DNA of 64,000 bases from NCBI GenBank assembly GCA_039933845.1, contig JBDTNH010000002.1:1411-65410 (forward strand). The letters are read 5' to 3'. Below, piece after piece: positions 17,229 through 30,225 of this stretch. Positions within the stretch are counted from its first letter, which is position 1, and the number at the start of each line of letters is the position of its first letter. A model generated the notes under the pieces. That model was not told the origin of the DNA and did no database searches. It worked only from the letters and a program-made list of their open reading frames with translations. The translations under genes and the position numbers were made by a program. The DNA comes from Gemmatimonadota bacterium. Lineage in GTDB: Bacteria; Gemmatimonadota; Gemmatimonadetes; Gemmatimonadales; GWC2-71-9.

Positions 17229-17375
17229 GAACCCTCCAGCCGCGGCGGTCACGCCGCGGGATCTCCGCGCCCCCATGAACCCTCCAGCCGCGGCGGTCAC
17301 GCCGCGGGATCTCCGCGTGTTCATCAATCGCCGTGATCTCCGTTGAGATCCCGCGGCCGGATGGCCGCGGCTGGA
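17229..17375. repeat. palindromic repeat family B (2 direct + 1 inverted copy)
   Basis: GAACCCTCCAGCCGCGGCGGTCACGCCGCGGGATCTCCGCG at 17229..17269 and again, identical, at 17277..17317. An inverted variant GAGATCCCGCGGCCGGATGGCCGCGGCTGGA is at 17345..17375. Each copy contains a CCGCGGC/GCCGCGG stem. Confidence 0.75.
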
Positions 17376-19662: not shown

Positions 19663-20382
19663 TCAAGGCGTTGGTACAGGACTGCACGCTGCCAGCACAC
19701 CGTCGATCACTGCACGGACTCGCGAGTCGTTCATCATGAATGTATGTCGGACGGGCAACTCGGTGACGGGTTGGTCGGCGGCCTGGCGCGTCTCGTCGAC
19801 GGCCACGATGCTGTCGTTCGGGTCCTGGCCGAACGGACTCCATCGTCCGACCGGTCCGCCGGTACCGGCAATGATCGTGTGCGGAAGAGTGAGAGGTGGC
19901 AGTGCGGCGAGGAACGCGGGGTCGGCGAGCCGCTGACCGGCGTCGCCGTTGATGATGCGGTAGAGCCAATTGCGATGGAGTCGGCGTGCCAGCCGCGGTG
20001 GCTGGTTGGGCGGCCCGAGCATGACAAGGTGCTGTGGCAGGGTAGTGAGTCGCGGCTCGAGCGTGAGGGCCGCGCGGACGAGGACGCCACCGAGCGAGTG
20101 ACCGATCACGACGAGGGGCTGTGTCGCCCGCCCGAGTTCGTCCAGGTGGGTGTGCAGGCGTCGGACGATCTGGTCGACCGGTTGTGTCGTGGCGAAGTAG
20201 CCGAAGCTGTGTGTTTCGTGGCCGCTCCCTCGAAGGTGTCGGGCGAGCGACGCGAGTGAGCGCGGTGTGCGACCGAGTCCGTGGATCAGGAGGATGCGCG
20301 CCGAGCCGCGGCTGTCAGCCGAGCTGCCGCCGTCAGCCGAGCCGCGGCTGTCAAGCCGCGGTTTGATCCGCACCACACCCAT
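19663..20382 (-). CDS. alpha/beta hydrolase
   Basis: ILLIHGLG oxyanion region and GHSLGG nucleophile elbow. The N-terminus contains a hexapeptide repeat encoded by 18-bp tandem repeats. Confidence 0.75.
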   Translation of the reverse strand: MGVVRIKPRLDSRGSADGGSSADSRGSARILLIHGLGRTPRSLASLARHLRGSGHETHSFGYFATTQPVDQIVRRLHTHLDELGRATQPLVVIGHSLGGVLVRAALTLEPRLTTLPQHLVMLGPPNQPPRLARRLHRNWLYRIINGDAGQRLADPAFLAALPPLTLPHTIIAGTGGPVGRWSPFGQDPNDSIVAVDETRQAADQPVTELPVRHTFMMNDSRVRAVIDGVLAACSPVPTP

Positions 20383-22810: not shown

Positions 22811-22898
22811 TTAGGGGCGACCGTGAGGTCGCCCGGCACGGCGGACGAATGCCCGCGGTTCATTGGTCGCGCCGGGCGACCTCACGGTCGCCCCTAAA
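22811..22898. repeat. REPIN (inverted REP doublet, family A)
   Basis: TTAGGGGCGACCGTGAGGTCGCCCGGC (22811..22837) and its exact reverse complement (22871..22897), separated by 33 nt. Lies between convergent genes. Confidence 0.85.
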
Positions 22899-24612: not shown

Positions 24613-24757
24613 AGGCGCCCGTTGGCGCCCCCTTAGGCGCCCGTGTCAACGGGCGCTCTGGATGTATGCCCGACCATTTAGGCGCCCGTGTCAACGGGCG
24701 CTTCGGATGCCGTGCCACAGATCCAGAGCGCCAGCTGACGCAGGCGCCTAAATGAAC
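24613..24757. repeat. REP cluster, stem variant (family A2)
   Basis: TTAGGCGCCCGTGTCAACGGGCGCT at 24633..24657. TTTAGGCGCCCGTGTCAACGGGCGCT at 24677..24702. A degenerate inverted copy ending CCTAAATGAAC at 24725..24757. A GGCGCC-CGTT-GGCGCC hairpin at 24614..24629. Confidence 0.7.
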
Positions 24758-24780: not shown

Positions 24781-24902
24781 CCATCGTTGAACCACAATCG
24801 ATGGAGTCCGTGGTCATTTGCCGCTGCTTGCAACCACGTTAAATAAATGCTAAAAACTGCGTATTTCGCCTGGCGGCCTTCATGTGCCGCTGGGCGTTTT
24901 GT
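24781..24902 (+). promoter_or_regulatory. structured 5' leader with intrinsic terminator upstream of metX-metB (candidate riboswitch/attenuator)
   Basis: Hairpin CCATCG..CGATGG (24781..24804). Stem GUGGU/ACCAC (24810..24837) whose loop CAUUU can pair with AAAUG in the A-rich tail AAAUAAAUGCUAAAAA. Then a 10-bp hairpin GCCUGGCGGC/GCCGCUGGGC (24868..24895) followed by GUUUUG, about 50 nt before the metX ATG. Confidence 0.4.
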
Positions 24903-24952
24903 CGTATCCGCTCGGCAGCCGTGGAGCATCATCCACACGCCGGAGGCGACCA

Positions 24953-25864
24953 ATGCCCGTCACGACTGCCGCACCACCCACGACATCCTGTACCTGGGAA
25001 CTCACCGGCCCACACCGCGCGCCACTGGTCGTGGCGCTCGGCGGGATCTCCGCCCATCGTCACGTGTGCCAGACGGAGAGCAACGCACAACCCGGTTGGT
25101 GGGACGGGCTGGTCGGTGCCGGCCTCGCACTGGATACGCGCCGGTTCCGAGTGCTTGGAATCGACTGGCACACCGGCGCTGAGACGGTCACGACCGGCGA
25201 TCAGGCCGACCAGCTCGCCGCGGTGCTCGACGAGCTTGGCGTCACTGCCGTCCACTCAATCGTCGGCGCTTCGTACGGCGGGATGGTGGCGCTCGCCTTC
25301 GCCGCACGCTACCCAGACCGGGTCGGTCGACTCACCGTCGTCGCCGCGGCCCACCAGACCCATCCGATGGCGACCGCGCACCGCGTCATCCAGCGACGGA
25401 TCATCCGGCTTGGGCTCGCCGCGGGTCTCCCCACCGAAGGAGTGGCCCTCGCCCGCGCGCTCGGCATGACAACCTATCGGACCGCCGAAGAGTTCGCTGC
25501 GAGATTCGAACCGACACGTGATTATGCGTCGGGTGCGTTCCCAATTGAGGGATACCTCGACCATGGCAGCCGTCGATTCGCGTCGACATGGGATCCGGAT
25601 CGCTACCTCACGCTCTCGGAGTCACTCGACCTGCACCGCGTCGATCCAGCAGCGATCACCGTTCCGCTCAACCTGCTCGGCTTCCACGAGGACACTCTGG
25701 TCCCAGTCTGGCAACTGGAGGAGCTGGCCGCGAAGTACGGTGGTCCGTGTCGACTCGAACTCGCGTCATCGATCTACGGGCATGACGGCTTCCTCAAGGA
25801 GGTCGCGGTGGTCGGTCGGTTCATTGGCCAGTCACTCGGAAGCGAGGTGCGTCATGCCGCGTAG
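24953..25864 (+). CDS. metX: homoserine O-acyltransferase (MetX family, short form)
   Basis: ATG at 24953 preceded by GGAGG. Contains GISAHRH, WWDGLVG, GASYGGMVALAFAARYP (nucleophile elbow) and a C-terminal HDGFL. Acyl donor (acetyl or succinyl) cannot be judged by eye. Confidence 0.8.
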   Translation: MPVTTAAPPTTSCTWELTGPHRAPLVVALGGISAHRHVCQTESNAQPGWWDGLVGAGLALDTRRFRVLGIDWHTGAETVTTGDQADQLAAVLDELGVTAVHSIVGASYGGMVALAFAARYPDRVGRLTVVAAAHQTHPMATAHRVIQRRIIRLGLAAGLPTEGVALARALGMTTYRTAEEFAARFEPTRDYASGAFPIEGYLDHGSRRFASTWDPDRYLTLSESLDLHRVDPAAITVPLNLLGFHEDTLVPVWQLEELAAKYGGPCRLELASSIYGHDGFLKEVAVVGRFIGQSLGSEVRHAA

Positions 25865-27101
25865 ACACCCTGTGACCGCCGCGGTTCGCGCCGGGATCTG
25901 CTCCGACCATGAACACGGCGCGGTGGTGCCACCGATCCATCTCTCGTCGACTTTCACGTTCGAGGGGTTCGGCATCAAGCGGCAATACGACTACACCCGC
26001 TCGGGCAATCCCACGCGCGATCAGCTGGGTGCCGCGATCGCGGAGCTTGAGGGTGCGAGCGGCGGTGTCATCACGAGTAGCGGTATGTCCGCGATCACCA
26101 CCGTGTTACAGCTGGTTCGTCCCGGTGACCTGATCCTTGCCACCCACGACTGCTATGGCGGGACCCATCGCCTGTTGACCCATCTCAGTCGGCGCGGATT
26201 GTTCGATGTGGAGTTCCGGGATCTTGGAAAGTGGGTTGAGGACGGGAACGTCGGAACGAGCGAGCGTCGGCCGCGGTTGGTCTGGATCGAGACACCCAGT
26301 AACCCGTTGCTCCGGATCACTGACATCGCCGCCGTCGCGGACAAGGCACATGCGCTCGGCGCGCTGGTGGTGGCCGACAACACCTTCCTCTCGCCGGCAT
26401 GGCAGCGGCCGCTCGATTACGGCGCCGACATTGTGGTGCACTCGACCACCAAATACCTCAACGGCCACAGCGACGTGGTTGGCGGCGCGGTCGTCGCGCG
26501 CGACGCCTCTCTCGTCGAGGAGCTCGGTTGGTGGGCGAACTGTCTCGGTGTGACCGGTGCACCGTTCGACAGTTACTTGACGCTGCGTGGCATTCGCACG
26601 CTGCACGCACGTGCGCGCATCCACGAAGAGAACGCCGTCGAGGTGGTCGCGGCACTCGGTGCGCATCCCGCGGTCGAGCGCGTCTGGTATCCGGGGCTCC
26701 GGAGCCATCCGGGCCACGAGATCGCGGTGCGGCAGCAACTTGGGTTCGGAGCGATGGTCTCGTTCGAGCTCCGGGGCGGGGAACGTGCTGTCCGGCAGTT
26801 CCTTGATGGCCTCAACTGTTTCACGCTGGCCGAATCGTTGGGTGGTGTTGAATCGTTGGTGGCGCATCCGGCCACCATGACCCACGCGGCCATGGACGCC
26901 GAGGCGCGGGCGTTCGCCGGCATCAGGGACACGGTGCTGCGGTTGTCGGTCGGGATTGAATCGGCCGAGGACCTGGTAGCGGATATCGAGGCGGGGTTGG
27001 GACGGGTGGATTGCTTAGGGGCGACCGTTTTAGGGGCGACGGTCACGTCGCCCGGCGCGACCAATGAACCGCTGCCGTCCATCTGCAATCCCGCATTTTA
27101 A
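25854..27101 (+). CDS. metB: cystathionine gamma-synthase-like PLP enzyme (Cys/Met metabolism family) with REP-encoded C-terminal tail
   Basis: MPRRHPVTAAVRAGI...HSTTKYLNGHSDVVGG (PLP-Lys). 11-nt overlap with metX. The last ~29 codons (from ~27013) are read straight through REP units. Confidence 0.85.
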   Translation: MPRRHPVTAAVRAGICSDHEHGAVVPPIHLSSTFTFEGFGIKRQYDYTRSGNPTRDQLGAAIAELEGASGGVITSSGMSAITTVLQLVRPGDLILATHDCYGGTHRLLTHLSRRGLFDVEFRDLGKWVEDGNVGTSERRPRLVWIETPSNPLLRITDIAAVADKAHALGALVVADNTFLSPAWQRPLDYGADIVVHSTTKYLNGHSDVVGGAVVARDASLVEELGWWANCLGVTGAPFDSYLTLRGIRTLHARARIHEENAVEVVAALGAHPAVERVWYPGLRSHPGHEIAVRQQLGFGAMVSFELRGGERAVRQFLDGLNCFTLAESLGGVESLVAHPATMTHAAMDAEARAFAGIRDTVLRLSVGIESAEDLVADIEAGLGRVDCLGATVLGATVTSPGATNEPLPSICNPAF

Positions 27102-27572
27102 GGGCGACCGTAAGGCCGCCCGGCGCTACCAATGAACGGCGGCCGTCCATCTGCAATCCCGCATTTTGGGAGCGGCCGTCTGGCCGCTCGGCGCGACCAA
27201 TGAACCGCAATCATCCAACGCCGACCAAATGACGGCGGCCCACCGGTAGCCGTGCCGAGCGGCCTGATGGCCGCTCCTAAATGCACGCGAGCGCCTTTAA
27301 GGAGCGACCGTAAGGTCGCTCGGCGCTACCAATGAACCGCTGCCGTCCACCTGTGATGCCGCATTTAGGCACGACCGTGAGGTCGTGCGGCGCTACCAAT
27401 GAAGGTCGCTTTTCGTGTGTGGATGTCTTACGGCCACTCATCACGGGTCGTGCCGGGCGACTTCACAGTCGCCCCTAAATGCAGCGGTCAATGGTCGTGC
27501 TGAGCGGCCTGACGGCCGCTCCTAAATGCATCGGTCATGGGTCTTGCCGGGCGACTTCACAGTCGCCCCTAA
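27014..27572. repeat. REP array, left flank of RAYT (family A)
   Basis: About 9 units of TTTAGG-[8-bp stem]-GTNA-[stem']-GGCGCGACCAATGAAC. Forward copies run from 27028. Inverted copies end in CCTAAA at ~27281, 27480 and 27524, and in CCTAAG at 27571. Confidence 0.85.
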
Positions 27573-28018
27573 GGCGAACGAAACGGATTGTCCCGGATGT
27601 ATGCCTCGGCCGTTGCCAAACGGCGCGGGCTGGTCAGGAACCGTACATCGAATCCCTTCTGCCACAGTCGCTCTTCTGGGCCGAGATCGCCACTTGCCCG
27701 AGCAAGTCGCGTGGCCTCCGCCTTGAATCCCCCGACGACGCGGGACAAGGCGCCGGCCCGACCTGGCGGCACCTCTGTCCAATGGAGAATCCCGTGGAAG
27801 TGGTCCGGCATCACGACGGAGACGCCAAGGCTGATCCACGGGCGATGGGTCGGGATCAATTCCCAAGCCGTCGCGACGATCTCCCCGATCGATGACACTG
27901 GTGATCCGGTCCGGTTGGTCGAAGCGAGGAGGCCATGCCGCCGGTACGTCACCGTGGTGATCAGGTGGTACGCCGGCGGGGCAGCTGACAGGATTTCATT
28001 GCGCGGTCGAATGGACAT
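27569..28018 (-). CDS. REP-associated tyrosine transposase (RAYT; IS200/IS605-type Y1 transposase fold)
   Basis: MSIRPRNEILSAAPPAYHLITTVTYRRHGLL... HUH motif VVMPDHFHGIL. Catalytic-Tyr motif AEAYIRDNPF. ATG at 28018. The TAG stop lies inside the flanking REP (CCTTAGGGGCGAC). Confidence 0.8.
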   Translation of the reverse strand: MSIRPRNEILSAAPPAYHLITTVTYRRHGLLASTNRTGSPVSSIGEIVATAWELIPTHRPWISLGVSVVMPDHFHGILHWTEVPPGRAGALSRVVGGFKAEATRLARASGDLGPEERLWQKGFDVRFLTSPRRLATAEAYIRDNPFRSP

Positions 28019-28094
28019 GTCGCACGAAACGCGGATCCCATTGATTCGCACCACCGATTCAATGCACGATTGGACGAAACGCCGCACGATCGCA

Positions 28095-28910
28095 CTTGGG
28101 GCGACGGTCACGTCGCCCCTCCCAACCCCCCACCGCACCATTTAGGCACGACCGTCAGGTCGTGCGGCGCGACCAATGAACCGCGGCCATCCAACGGTGA
28201 TCATGTAACCGCCGGACATCATGGGTGTTGCCGAGCGGCGTGACCGCCGCTCCTGAATGCATCGGTCACGGGTATTGCCGGGCGACTTCACAGTCGCCCC
28301 TAAATGCACGCGGGCATCCACCGGCGACCGTCAGGTCGCCCCCAAAATCCCCCCCGGCCCATTTAGGGGCGACCGTCAGGTCGCCCGGCGCGACCAATGA
28401 ACGGCGGCCATCCATCGTCGACCATGTGACGGCGGGACATCATGGGTATTGCCGGGCGACTTCACAGTCGCCCCTAAATGCAGGCGGCCACCTTAGGCAC
28501 GACCGTCAAGTCGTGCGGCGCGACCAATGAACCGCGGCCATCCAACGGTGATCATGTAACCGCCGGACATCATGGGTGTTGCCGAGCGGCGTGACCGCCG
28601 CTCCTGAATGCATCGGTCACGGGTATTGCCGGGCGACTTCACAGTCGCCCCTAAATGCACGCGGGCATCCACCGGCGACCGTCAGGTCGCCCCCAAAATC
28701 CCCCCCGGCCCATTTAGGGGCGACCGTCAGGTCGCCCGGCGCGACCAATGAACGGCGGCCATCCATGGTCGATCATGTGTCGGCCGGGCATCATGGGTTG
28801 TGCCGAGCGGCGTGACCGCCGCTCCTGAGGCAGTCGCCCATGAATGCAGGCAATTATCATTGGTTGTGCCGAGCGACCTGACGGTCGCTCCTAATACGGT
28901 CGTCCCTAAA
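28095..28910. repeat. REP array, right flank of RAYT, including a 351-bp tandem duplication
   Basis: More than 12 REP units in both orientations. Block 28142..28492 is repeated at 28493 onward with a 351-bp period. The first ~273 bp are near-identical. Confidence 0.85.
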
Positions 28911-28923
28911 GTGTGGAGGAACT

Positions 28924-30225
28924 GTGATTCCATGGATTCGACGGGCGACCATCCTGTCGCCCCTGATTATCGCCGCCTGCGCCCCCGCCGCGCCGGCGCG
29001 GCCAGACCTCGACACGATCGCGACCCGGTATGTCGTGCTCGCCCTGTCGATGGGTCGTCACGACCCGGCCTACGTCGATGCCTACTACGGTCCCGATTCG
29101 CTCAAGGCCCAGGCCAACGTCGAAAAGTTGTCGCTCGACGCCATCCGCGCCGCGGCCGACTCGCTGATCGCTCAACTCGGTGACAGCGTGCCGACCTACG
29201 ACGATTCGCTCGCCACGATGCGGCACCGCTACCTCCGGACCCAGCTCGGTTCGATGGTCGCGCGTGCTCAGATGCTGGCGGGCACCACGCTCACGTTTGA
29301 TCAAGAGGCGAAGGCGCTCTACGACGCGACACCGCCGCATCTTTCCGATGCGCACTTCGACTCGCTCCTGAATGCGCTCGACTCACTCGTGCCGGGCCGG
29401 GGACCACTCGCGACTCGGTATCAGGCGTTCCGGAAGCGCGTCGAGATCCCGACCACCCTGGTCGACACCGTCTTCAAGACCGCCATCGCCGCGTGTCGTG
29501 AGCGAACACTCGCACACATCACGCTTCCCGCCGGCGAGACGTTCGACCTCGAGTACGTCACCGGTACCTCGTGGAATGCCTACAACTGGTACAAGGGCAA
29601 TTCGCATTCGCTGATCCAGGTCAACACGGACTTCCCGATCGAGGTCGATCGCGCGATCGACCTCGCGTGCCATGAGGGATACCCGGGCCACCACGTCTAC
29701 AACGCGTCGCTCGAGACGGCGCTGGTGCGGGGCCGCGACTGGGTCGAATTCTCGGTCTACCCGCTCTTCTCGCCGCAGTCGCTCATCGCCGAAGGCAGCG
29801 CCAACTTCGGGATCGAGATGGCGTTCCCCGGCGACGAGCGCACCGCGTTCGAGCATGACGTGCTCTTTCCGCTCGCAGGTCTCGATGCGTCGCTCGCCGA
29901 GCAGAATGCCAAGATTCGGGCGATCAACACCGAGCTCAACTACGCCCGGAACGAAGTGGCCCGCCAGTACCTCGATGGCGGCATGGACAGCACCCAGGCG
30001 GTGGCCGCGATGGAGCGCTACTGGTTGCAGAGTCCGGCTGCAGGCGCCAAGACGCTCCAGTTCATCAAGGACTACCGGAGTTACGTGATCAACTACAACC
30101 TCGGCCGCGACCTCGTGGCCGATTGGGTGTCGCGTGAAGGTGGTACCGATCCGGCTGCGCGCTGGCGTGCCTTCGCGTCCCTGCTGGCCTCGCCACGGCT
30201 GCCGAGCGACCTCGCGGCACCCTGA
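28924..30225 (+). CDS. putative metallopeptidase-like lipoprotein (DUF885-like, HEGYPGHH motif)
   Basis: 433 aa. Lipobox LIIAAC and motif DLACHEGYPGHHVYN. GTG start with GGAGGA upstream. Confidence 0.5.
   Translation: MIPWIRRATILSPLIIAACAPAAPARPDLDTIATRYVVLALSMGRHDPAYVDAYYGPDSLKAQANVEKLSLDAIRAAADSLIAQLGDSVPTYDDSLATMRHRYLRTQLGSMVARAQMLAGTTLTFDQEAKALYDATPPHLSDAHFDSLLNALDSLVPGRGPLATRYQAFRKRVEIPTTLVDTVFKTAIAACRERTLAHITLPAGETFDLEYVTGTSWNAYNWYKGNSHSLIQVNTDFPIEVDRAIDLACHEGYPGHHVYNASLETALVRGRDWVEFSVYPLFSPQSLIAEGSANFGIEMAFPGDERTAFEHDVLFPLAGLDASLAEQNAKIRAINTELNYARNEVARQYLDGGMDSTQAVAAMERYWLQSPAAGAKTLQFIKDYRSYVINYNLGRDLVADWVSREGGTDPAARWRAFASLLASPRLPSDLAAP

Follow-up and report, generated by a model that had tools for sequence, protein, structure and literature searches.

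REP/RAYT systems, in which repetitive extragenic palindromes (REPs) accompany a REP-associated tyrosine transposase (RAYT), are the commonest non-autonomous mobile DNA of bacteria, and the experiments on them come from E. coli and Pseudomonas. We use REPtron as do Ton-Hoang 2012, Messing 2012 and Quentin 2018, and REPIN, for an inverted REP doublet, as do Bertels and Rainey. The best described enzyme, TnpA-REP of E. coli, is a monomer that binds the REP hairpin and, base-specifically, the GTAG 5' of it, and that cleaves and rejoins single-stranded DNA (ssDNA) (PMC3479197). A3 and G4 of this GTAG point to the active site, where pairing with the CT of the cleavage site has been proposed; binding requires a bulge in the hairpin, and a C-terminal tail of the protein occupies the active site, with truncation after G152 raising activity (PMC3479197). 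Class 2 (TnpA-REP) proteins are recognized by the signature Y-x3-N-P together with HuH and WQ, the IS200 signature being Y-x3-Q, and feet other than GTAG are already known, namely, CnGA in class 3 (PMC6006769). Bioinformatic surveys have already listed REP/RAYT systems from Cyanobacteria, the PVC group, Chloroflexi, Bacteroidetes and Acidobacteria (PMC3733652, PMC6006769). Here we describe a locus from a soil Gemmatimonadales bacterium, contained in a 64-kb stretch of DNA of 66.5% GC (the window), in which a gene for a 149-amino-acid (aa) RAYT lies in a nest of hairpins headed by TTAG. We conclude that this locus is very probably a REPtron, that is, a single-copy, vertically inherited RAYT (TnpA-REP, Y1 HUH) within arrays of its cognate REPs, with the variant features of a TTAG head, bulge-less stems, a tail-less protein and altered guide-contact residues.

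The RAYT gene and its protein

The gene was compared with two orthologues located by exact-sequence look-ups. One lies on a contig (L001) of the metagenome-assembled genome (MAG) "Gemmatimonadales bacterium LS6_sbin.69" (GCA_038258395.1), a different species from the window organism at ∼88% nucleotide identity, and encodes a 90%-identical protein; the other lies on a JGI metagenome contig (L002) and encodes a 75%-identical one. The gene is as follows.

27569..28018, minus strand: RAYT gene, 149 aa, with HUH His73/His75, W119-Q120, and Tyr140 in YIRDNP

This open reading frame (ORF), on which an earlier note made from the sequence had based its proposal of a RAYT, is real. Its translation (MSIRPRNEILSAAPPAYHLITTVTYRRHGLL...VVMPDHFHGILHW...ERLWQKGFDVRFL...AEAYIRDNPFRSP) includes the VVMPDHFHGIL, AEAYIRDNP and YHLITTVTYRRH stretches that the note had named. 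An alignment of 18 short relatives (A2; 33-91% identity) matched E. coli K-12 RayT (from NC_000913) in hhalign with 96.6% probability (E=5.9e-10), pairing MPDHFH with LPEHMH, LWQ with IWQ, and YIRDNP with YIYINP, so that the catalytic residues are in register. His73 and His75 correspond to E. coli H59 and H61 (HUH metal-binding motif), W119-Q120 to W94-Q95 (W motif, WQ/WE), and Y140-I-R-D-N144-P145 to Y115...N119-P (Y-x3-N-P motif). His73, His75, K99, W119 and Y140 are invariant in A2. In a larger alignment of 65 sequences (A3), H75 and Y140 are again invariant and H73 nearly so, while N144 and P145 are invariant in A3 and nearly so in A2.

The AlphaFold2 model built from 65 homologues reached a pLDDT of 87.7 and a pTM of 0.83, and the top 30 Foldseek matches in the PDB (E<1e-4) were all IS200/IS605-family transposases or TnpA-REP. 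The lowest root-mean-square deviation among these top matches was that to 4ER8, E. coli TnpA-REP on a REP hairpin (2.7 Å over 134 columns, TMq 0.63). Searches of PDB sequences failed, phmmer returning no true match but spurious designed-TIM hits alone and a 6-sequence profile reaching ISDra2 TnpA at E=0.14 only; homology is therefore shown through hhalign and structure instead. A small profile run against 1.84 billion representative proteins retrieved 21,820 clusters at E<=1e-3, with one cluster only belonging to the protein's own clade. JGI names many of the relatives found by the family profile "REP element-mobilizing transposase RayT," and those from Gemmatimonadales MAGs are annotated merely as "transposase." Judged by its sequence and its modelled structure, the 149-aa protein is thus a predicted Y1 HUH enzyme of RAYT type, though a divergent one, and its Y-x3-NP motif clearly places it in class 2. 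The nearest Quentin subclasses by motif (DHFH / WQ / YIRDNP) and by the 149-aa length are 2.5 and 2.7, a comparison made at the motif level.

The gene neighbors are alike in all three genomes, with a Cys_Met_Meta_PP gene on one side and a 431-433-aa protein on the other, at 75-91% amino-acid identity. Nei-Gojobori dN/dS ratios for the three orthologue pairs were 0.105, 0.143 and 0.146, with dS up to ∼1.2; the RAYT gene is under purifying selection. Neither the window nor any of the retrieved loci, all of them short of a complete genome, gave a second RAYT copy in tblastn. In each of the three orthologues the protein stops within a few residues of NPFRS, and the short C-terminus is therefore native to the clade; members of the wider family are 150-170 aa long. 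The last residue corresponds to about residue 124 in E. coli RayT, and the C-terminal autoinhibitory tail is therefore absent. The gene is thus probably a resident, vertically inherited and domesticated gene rather than an insertion sequence (IS). Its GC content at third codon positions (GC3) is 0.72-0.74 in all three orthologues, compared with 0.80-0.88 in typical genes of the genome, and its codon usage is mildly atypical.

REP units in the nest and beyond it

REP copies were collected with an nhmmer model built from 9 copies and with a strict hairpin scan (TTAG-like head, 8-bp stem with at most 1 mismatch, [GA]TN[AT] loop). The unit reads 5'-TTAG-(8-bp stem beginning with G)-GTNA-(complementary arm)-GGC... 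The earlier definition as a hairpin with an 8-bp stem and a GTNA loop stands, but its "TTAGG plus 8 bp" is to be corrected to TTAG plus a stem that starts with G. Similarly, the GGCGCGACCAATGAAC tail that the note had included belongs to about half of the copies, which run on after GGC as GCGACCAATGAA(C), the rest ending GGCA[AC]... A TTAG head is carried by 76 of 91 copies and a TCAG head by 9; none has GTAG, a departure from the canonical GT[AG]G foot. In 84 of the 91 the loop is GTCA, GTGA or GTAA.

Among 62 distinct copies (window, MAG and L002 combined), compensatory changes on both sides were seen at 5 of the 8 stem pairs. The arms GGGCGACC, GCACGACC, GCGCGACC, GATCGACC, GAGCGACC, GGTCGACC, GAGCGGCC and GGGCGGCC each occur with their complement. 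The covariation score was 0.421, versus 0.115 ± 0.014 in shuffles. Paired cells made up 98.6%, versus 27-47% after sliding of the 3' partner, a figure inflated by the preselection of copies with at most 1 stem mismatch, which leaves the counts of pair types unaffected. Folded as ssDNA, REP elements gave z-scores of -3.6 to -9.3. In the REP alignment (A4), the invariant stem positions are C12, G13, C15 / G22, C24, G25, and it may be the GTNA loop and these positions that carry specificity here.

The nest is made up of two arrays, listed below with copies given from head to 3' arm.

27015..27572, both strands: left REP array, on the 3' side of the gene (nhmmer and hairpin scan)
27030-27053, 27098-27121, 27166-27189, 27298-27321, 27365-27388, plus strand: left-array copies
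27257-27280, 27455-27478, 27502-27525, 27549-27572, minus strand: left-array copies
27015-27028: truncated copy in the left array
28095..28911, both strands: right REP array, on the 5' side of the gene (nhmmer and hairpin scan)
28142-28165, 28363-28386, 28493-28516, 28714-28737, plus strand: right-array copies
28233-28256, 28280-28303, 28454-28477, 28584-28607, 28631-28654, 28805-28828, 28871-28894, minus strand: right-array copies
28095-28118, 28322-28341, 28673-28692: degenerate or head-less hairpins in the right array
28895-28911: partial copy in the right array
28142..28792, plus strand: 351-bp tandem duplication in the right array (28142-28441 and 28493-28792), 98% identical

The more than 20 copies in both orientations that the earlier note had counted by eye are borne out by ∼22 well-formed and several degenerate units between 27015 and 28911. 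The strict scan returned 20 of them (9 on the plus and 11 on the minus strand) in addition to degenerate ones, and nhmmer returned ∼25 on both strands. The pattern TTAGGNNCGRCNGTNANGYCGNNCRGC had 15 matches in the window versus 0.00 expected from 100 shuffles. Likewise in agreement with the note, the heads nearest to the gene face it on both sides (27569-27572 on the minus and 28142-28145 on the plus strand), as they do in all three orthologous loci (the window, L001 and L002). The order of copies in the window nest is +++-++--- | gene | +--+-+--+--. In the dispersed clusters of mixed orientation, plus copies precede minus copies in 9 of 9 cases, with the TTAG heads pointing outward (p ∼0.002). 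Nests are thus strings of heads-outward modules, as in REPINs or bacterial interspersed mosaic elements (BIMEs), and a gene lying between two such modules has the nearest head on each side facing it.

The 351-bp duplication is recent and adds part of the copy count of the nest, each duplicate holding 2 full plus-strand REPs, 2 to 3 minus-strand REPs and one head-less hairpin. Within the nest, the window and the MAG differ by a 207-bp indel consisting of REPs only (27286-27492), and the L002 nest shows tandem periods of 52 and 93 bp; nests therefore turn over via duplication and gain or loss. A CRISPR-like or plain tandem array was ruled out by the irregular spacing, the mixed orientations and the dispersed copies. 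Neither a sigma-70 promoter nor a T-run terminator consensus was detected in the nest region. Just beyond the nest, a degenerate REP-like hairpin, TCAG-GGGCGACA-GGAT-GGTCGCCC (28941-28966, minus strand), falls within the first 15 codons of the downstream 433-aa gene, in the signal-peptide region; either the match is due to chance or the 5' coding sequence derives from a REP.

Confinement of the unit to this locus, which for the earlier note would have meant a local duplication array, is contradicted by a REPIN elsewhere in the window (22811-22897) and by at least 58 copies at 25 loci of the related MAG. The pattern had 47 exact matches in 185,579 species-representative genomes, all meaningful ones in MAG LS6_sbin.69, where they spread over ∼25 loci on ∼23 contigs; nhmmer raised the count to at least 58. 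Several of these short-read contigs (L009, L016, L028, L031, L032) begin or end inside REP clusters. As repeats fragment the assembly, the MAG counts are lower bounds. Of the 58 copies, 49 are intergenic, though 83% of the sequence is coding (p ∼1e-28); the coding calls come from a crude GC3-based gene caller, and most "in-ORF" copies lie at over-extended ORF starts. Matches in genomes other than LS6 were single and without a hairpin, hence due to chance or coding sequence; the same applies to 15 single matches in JGI metagenome contigs, none of them hairpin-forming. Viral contigs held 0 matches to the pattern.

The window features outside the nest are the following.

22811..22897: dispersed 91-nt REPIN between convergent genes, made of two inverted REPs of the main family whose heads point outward
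24633..24750: REP sub-family, units 24633-24656 and 24678-24701 (plus strand) and a degenerate inverted partner ending CTAA at ∼24750

Folding of the REPIN at 22811-22897 as ssDNA gives one extended hairpin of -45.1 kcal/mol (z = -9.3); Rfam searches of the long REPIN hairpins gave sub-threshold miRNA-precursor look-alikes only. This REPIN, downstream of the ABC-F gene, has a counterpart at the orthologous site of the MAG; the arms are GGGCGACC/GGTCGCCC in the window and GCACGACC/GGTCGTGC in the MAG, a doubly compensated difference. The JGI relative has no REP at the orthologous site. No occupied and empty sites could be aligned for element ends or target, the intergenic regions of the JGI relative being too diverged. 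The sub-family at 24633-24750, TTAG-GCGCCCGT-GTCA-ACGGGCGC, has the head and loop of the main family with 4 of 8 stem positions different, and two tandem units in the window correspond to one in the MAG (a 45-nt indel). In Logan contigs from four soil/rhizosphere runs (∼3-5x, fragmented), contigs break at REPs and enter unrelated sequence, consistent with further copies existing; these runs yielded no usable insertion polymorphism.

We also observed a third dispersed hairpin family, (C)CAG-CCGCGGCG-GTCA-CGCCGCGG-GATCTC, at 17240-17370 and 20342-20361 of the window and in MAG loci L003, L016, L020, L023 and L036. It shares the 8-bp stem and GTCA loop of the main family and differs in stem, head and tail sequence, resembling the CCCGCCGCC-ATCA-GGCGGCGGG-GATCTC hairpins that flank a 45%-identical RAYT (P0159) in L042. 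From these sequences, a second RAYT/REP pair may exist elsewhere in the genome.

Guide recognition, stop codons and alternative explanations

As the earlier note had pointed out, TTAG stands where the guide tetranucleotide is canonically GT[AG]G (PMC6006769, PMC3479197). Residues implicated in GTAG recognition are W94, Q95, E/D100, H/R101 and R104 (Quentin et al., PMC6006769). Two of these positions are changed, E. coli E100 pairing with Val125 and R104 with Thr129. The block aligned to W94...R104 reads W-Q-K-G-F-D-V-R-F-L-T in the clade (the window protein, P0001-3, P0010, P0032, P0052 and P0159) and W-Q-R-G-Y-x-D-R-I-I-R in distant relatives, and GTAG- or GTAA-headed hairpins flank two canonical-type relatives at 29-40% identity (L043, L046). 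That altered contact residues go with an altered head is no more than suggestive; P0159 shares the protein signature of the clade, but the hairpins around it are different.

If it acts like its E. coli homologue TnpA-REP, the enzyme would bind, as a monomer, a REP hairpin extruded on ssDNA and read both the 5' TTAG and the foot of the 8-bp stem. With a metal held by His73/His75/Asn144 and Tyr140 as the nucleophile, ssDNA would be cut and rejoined, and REPs or inverted doublets would thereby be moved to intergenic positions, in most cases shortly after a stop codon. It is by this analogy that we infer that the enzyme binds and cleaves the TTAG hairpin and that transposition would be ongoing.

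A co-directional stop codon, terminating a GC3-typical ORF, was found 0-36 nt upstream of a REP head in 29 cases; it precedes the head by 5-36 nt in 22 of them, and in the other 7 the head's own TAG or TAA is the stop. Compared with a uniform spread, these stop-to-head distances have a p of ∼1e-5. The RAYT gene itself ends in this way, its stop TAG (27569-27571, read on the minus strand) being the TAG of the adjoining REP head, and so does the upstream Cys_Met_Meta_PP (met) gene, whose stop is the TAA (27099-27101) of the head at 27098-27101. The last ∼30 residues of the annotated C-terminus of the met gene ("LGATVLGATVTSPGATNEPLPSICNPAF") are encoded by REP DNA. The remaining heads used as stops lie in MAG loci.

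L022 6129-6131: REP head used as stop
L023 1014-1016: REP head used as stop
L025 ∼5732: REP head used as stop
L029 ∼1681: REP head used as stop
L036 3294-3296: REP head used as stop

The association could be caused by a preference for T-TAG-like targets, since at 66% GC such sequence is rare outside gene ends; alternatively, it could reflect the survival of insertions that restore a stop at once. It is conceivable, though on balance doubtful, that the tail-less clade, with W-x3-[FY]-D-V-R-[FVL]-L-x for W-Q-R-G-Y-x-[DE]-[RH]-I-I-R, has re-specified its guide from GTAG to TTAG and that the stop-containing TTAG favors landing or survival at stops. If true, the guide/target specificity of a Y1 enzyme would be linked to gene-end targeting, and GTAG-type and TTAG-type relatives within one order would form a natural pair for mapping how the tetranucleotide is read. 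A SAM-II/SAM_alpha riboswitch match (24800-24874, plus strand; 39 bits versus an Rfam gathering score of 36) is immediately followed by the abhydrolase (metX-like, 24884-25864) and Cys_Met_Meta_PP genes, which suggests a SAM-regulated methionine operon ending inside the REP nest.

Several points weigh against a REPtron. The Y1 profile match on which the earlier note had made its proposal depend was obtained, but below the curated cut-offs: Pfam Y1_Tnp (PF01797) gave 20.9 bits (E=4e-4; cut-off 23) and NCBIfam REP_Tyr_transpos (NF047646, "REP-associated tyrosine transposase") gave 41.7 bits (E=1e-10; cut-off 80). Having missed the latter, the protein is not an "equivalog" of the curated RayT set, and family-level homology consequently rests on profile-profile and structural evidence. 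The head is TTAG rather than the canonical GT[AG]G, and the stems are perfect, without the bulge that E. coli TnpA-REP needs (PMC3479197). The nest has grown partly by tandem duplication, which needs no transposase. The genome-wide REP census was taken from the fragmented MAG LS6_sbin.69, a species other than that of the window, and what can be said of genome-wide copy number, of REPIN master-sequence structure and of the gene being single-copy comes from the 64-kb window and this MAG. Finally, the support comes from sequence, a structure model and comparative genomics.

These points have to be set against what other explanations can account for. The Y1 HUH fold is common to IS608 and ISDra2, and hairpins adjoin both ends of the gene, as would be the case for an autonomous insertion sequence of the IS200/IS605 family, in which a mobile gene for the transposase lies between left-end and right-end hairpins of its own. 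Yet the Tyr motif is the class 2 Y-x3-N-P and not Y-x3-Q (PMC6006769), the flanks contain no tnpB-like ORF, and the flanking hairpins are inverted and multiple instead of forming one direct pair. Moreover, the gene holds the same chromosomal position in 3 genomes with dS up to ∼1.2, without a second gene copy in the window or the fetched loci, and the pattern is absent from viral contigs. An insertion sequence is thus largely refuted and very improbable. A decayed relic, that is, a truncated and inactive RAYT pseudogene among fossil repeats, might be suspected from the short protein, which ends 5 residues past the NP motif and takes its stop codon from a REP head. This explanation is disfavored, and we consider it extremely improbable, given dN/dS of 0.10-0.15 over three orthologues with all catalytic residues intact, the same end point in 3 of 3 orthologues (150-170 aa in the wider family) and a model that folds confidently as a complete Y1 domain; E. 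coli TnpA-REP cut after G152 is more active, not less (PMC3479197).

The hairpins might instead be host regulatory elements (3'-end mRNA stabilizers, terminator-like elements or translation modulators) spread by duplication or recombination, with the RAYT kept for another host function. The 29 heads at 0-36 nt past co-directional stops are where 3' mRNA hairpins would be expected, tandem duplications do occur in nests (a 351-bp one in the window; L002 has periods of 52 and 93 bp), and RAYTs have been argued to behave like housekeeping genes (PMC5581495). However, a conserved head and tail at 25 or more unlinked loci is beyond tandem duplication alone, and T-run terminators were not detected in the nest region. 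Strict heads-outward doublets and the co-location of gene and repeats in 3 genomes fit an enzyme-substrate pair, and a host role of inserted copies would be compatible with RAYT-driven spread. We therefore consider purely host-driven elements unlikely and retain the REPtron as the explanation of the locus.

Significance and relation to known systems

The locus extends the REP/RAYT system to Gemmatimonadota. A full-text literature search combining RAYT/REPIN or "repetitive extragenic palindrom*" with Gemmatimon* found no paper linking them, and the surveys PMC3733652 and PMC6006769 do not mention Gemmatimonad*, nor does PMC3733652 contain "TTAG." The earlier view that the lineage is unusual for such a system holds to the extent that no published Gemmatimonadota case was found; with several non-proteobacterial phyla already catalogued, it is less exceptional than supposed. 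The locus is also a compact example, combining a 149-aa tail-less enzyme, a perfect 8-bp hairpin and a guide with a one-base variant, and would be convenient for testing both how the tetranucleotide is read and why REPs build up right after stop codons. There are consequences for annotation as well: the protein falls below the curated Pfam and NCBIfam thresholds, its close homologues are unnamed or just called "transposase," and the repeats break short-read assemblies and lengthen annotated ORFs such as the met gene.

With IS200/IS605 TnpA (IS608, ISDra2; 2VJV, 2XM3), the RAYT described here would share catalytic fold and chemistry and the use of an ssDNA hairpin with a 5' guide tetranucleotide, but those enzymes belong to multi-copy autonomous insertion sequences, work as dimers in which the Tyr helix acts in trans, and have the Y-x3-Q motif, direct end hairpins and often tnpB. 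Class 3 TnpA-Y1 ("CnGA" foot, Acidobacteria/Planctomycetes) and subclass 2.6 (atypical hairpins) provide a precedent for REPtron-like loci outside Proteobacteria, with a non-GTAG foot and high copy number (PMC6006769); class 3 differs from the present protein in its Y-x4-Q motif and distinct core profile.

The E. coli K-12 REPtron (RayT = YafM = TnpA-REP, 4ER8; y/z REPs, BIMEs; Ton-Hoang 2012; Messing 2012, PMC3479197), which is Bertels group 2 or Quentin subclass 2.2, has in common with this locus the Y1 HUH fold, motifs in register and a chromosomal gene, here probably single, flanked by inverted REPs. Both also show intergenic dispersal of the repeat family, and the tetranucleotides that precede the hairpin foot agree in T2-A3-G4 and differ at position 1 alone. 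On the other hand, sequence identity is only 18-19%, a perfect 8-bp stem with a GTNA loop takes the place of a long imperfect stem with an essential bulge, and the ∼40-residue C-terminal autoinhibitory tail (E161 region) is absent here. The RAYTs of Pseudomonas and Xanthomonas with short REPs and REPINs (Bertels & Rainey 2011, PMC3116915), which are Bertels group 3 or Quentin subclass 2.5, differ in having YI[VI]ANP where the present protein has YIRDNP, as compared at the motif level, as well as GT[AG]G heads (PMC6006769), and they come from Gammaproteobacteria rather than Gemmatimonadota. They resemble the present system in protein size (subclass median of 151 aa versus 149 aa here), in the DH[LF]H and WQ motifs, and in combining short REPs in inverted doublets with vertical inheritance, probable here, and synteny.

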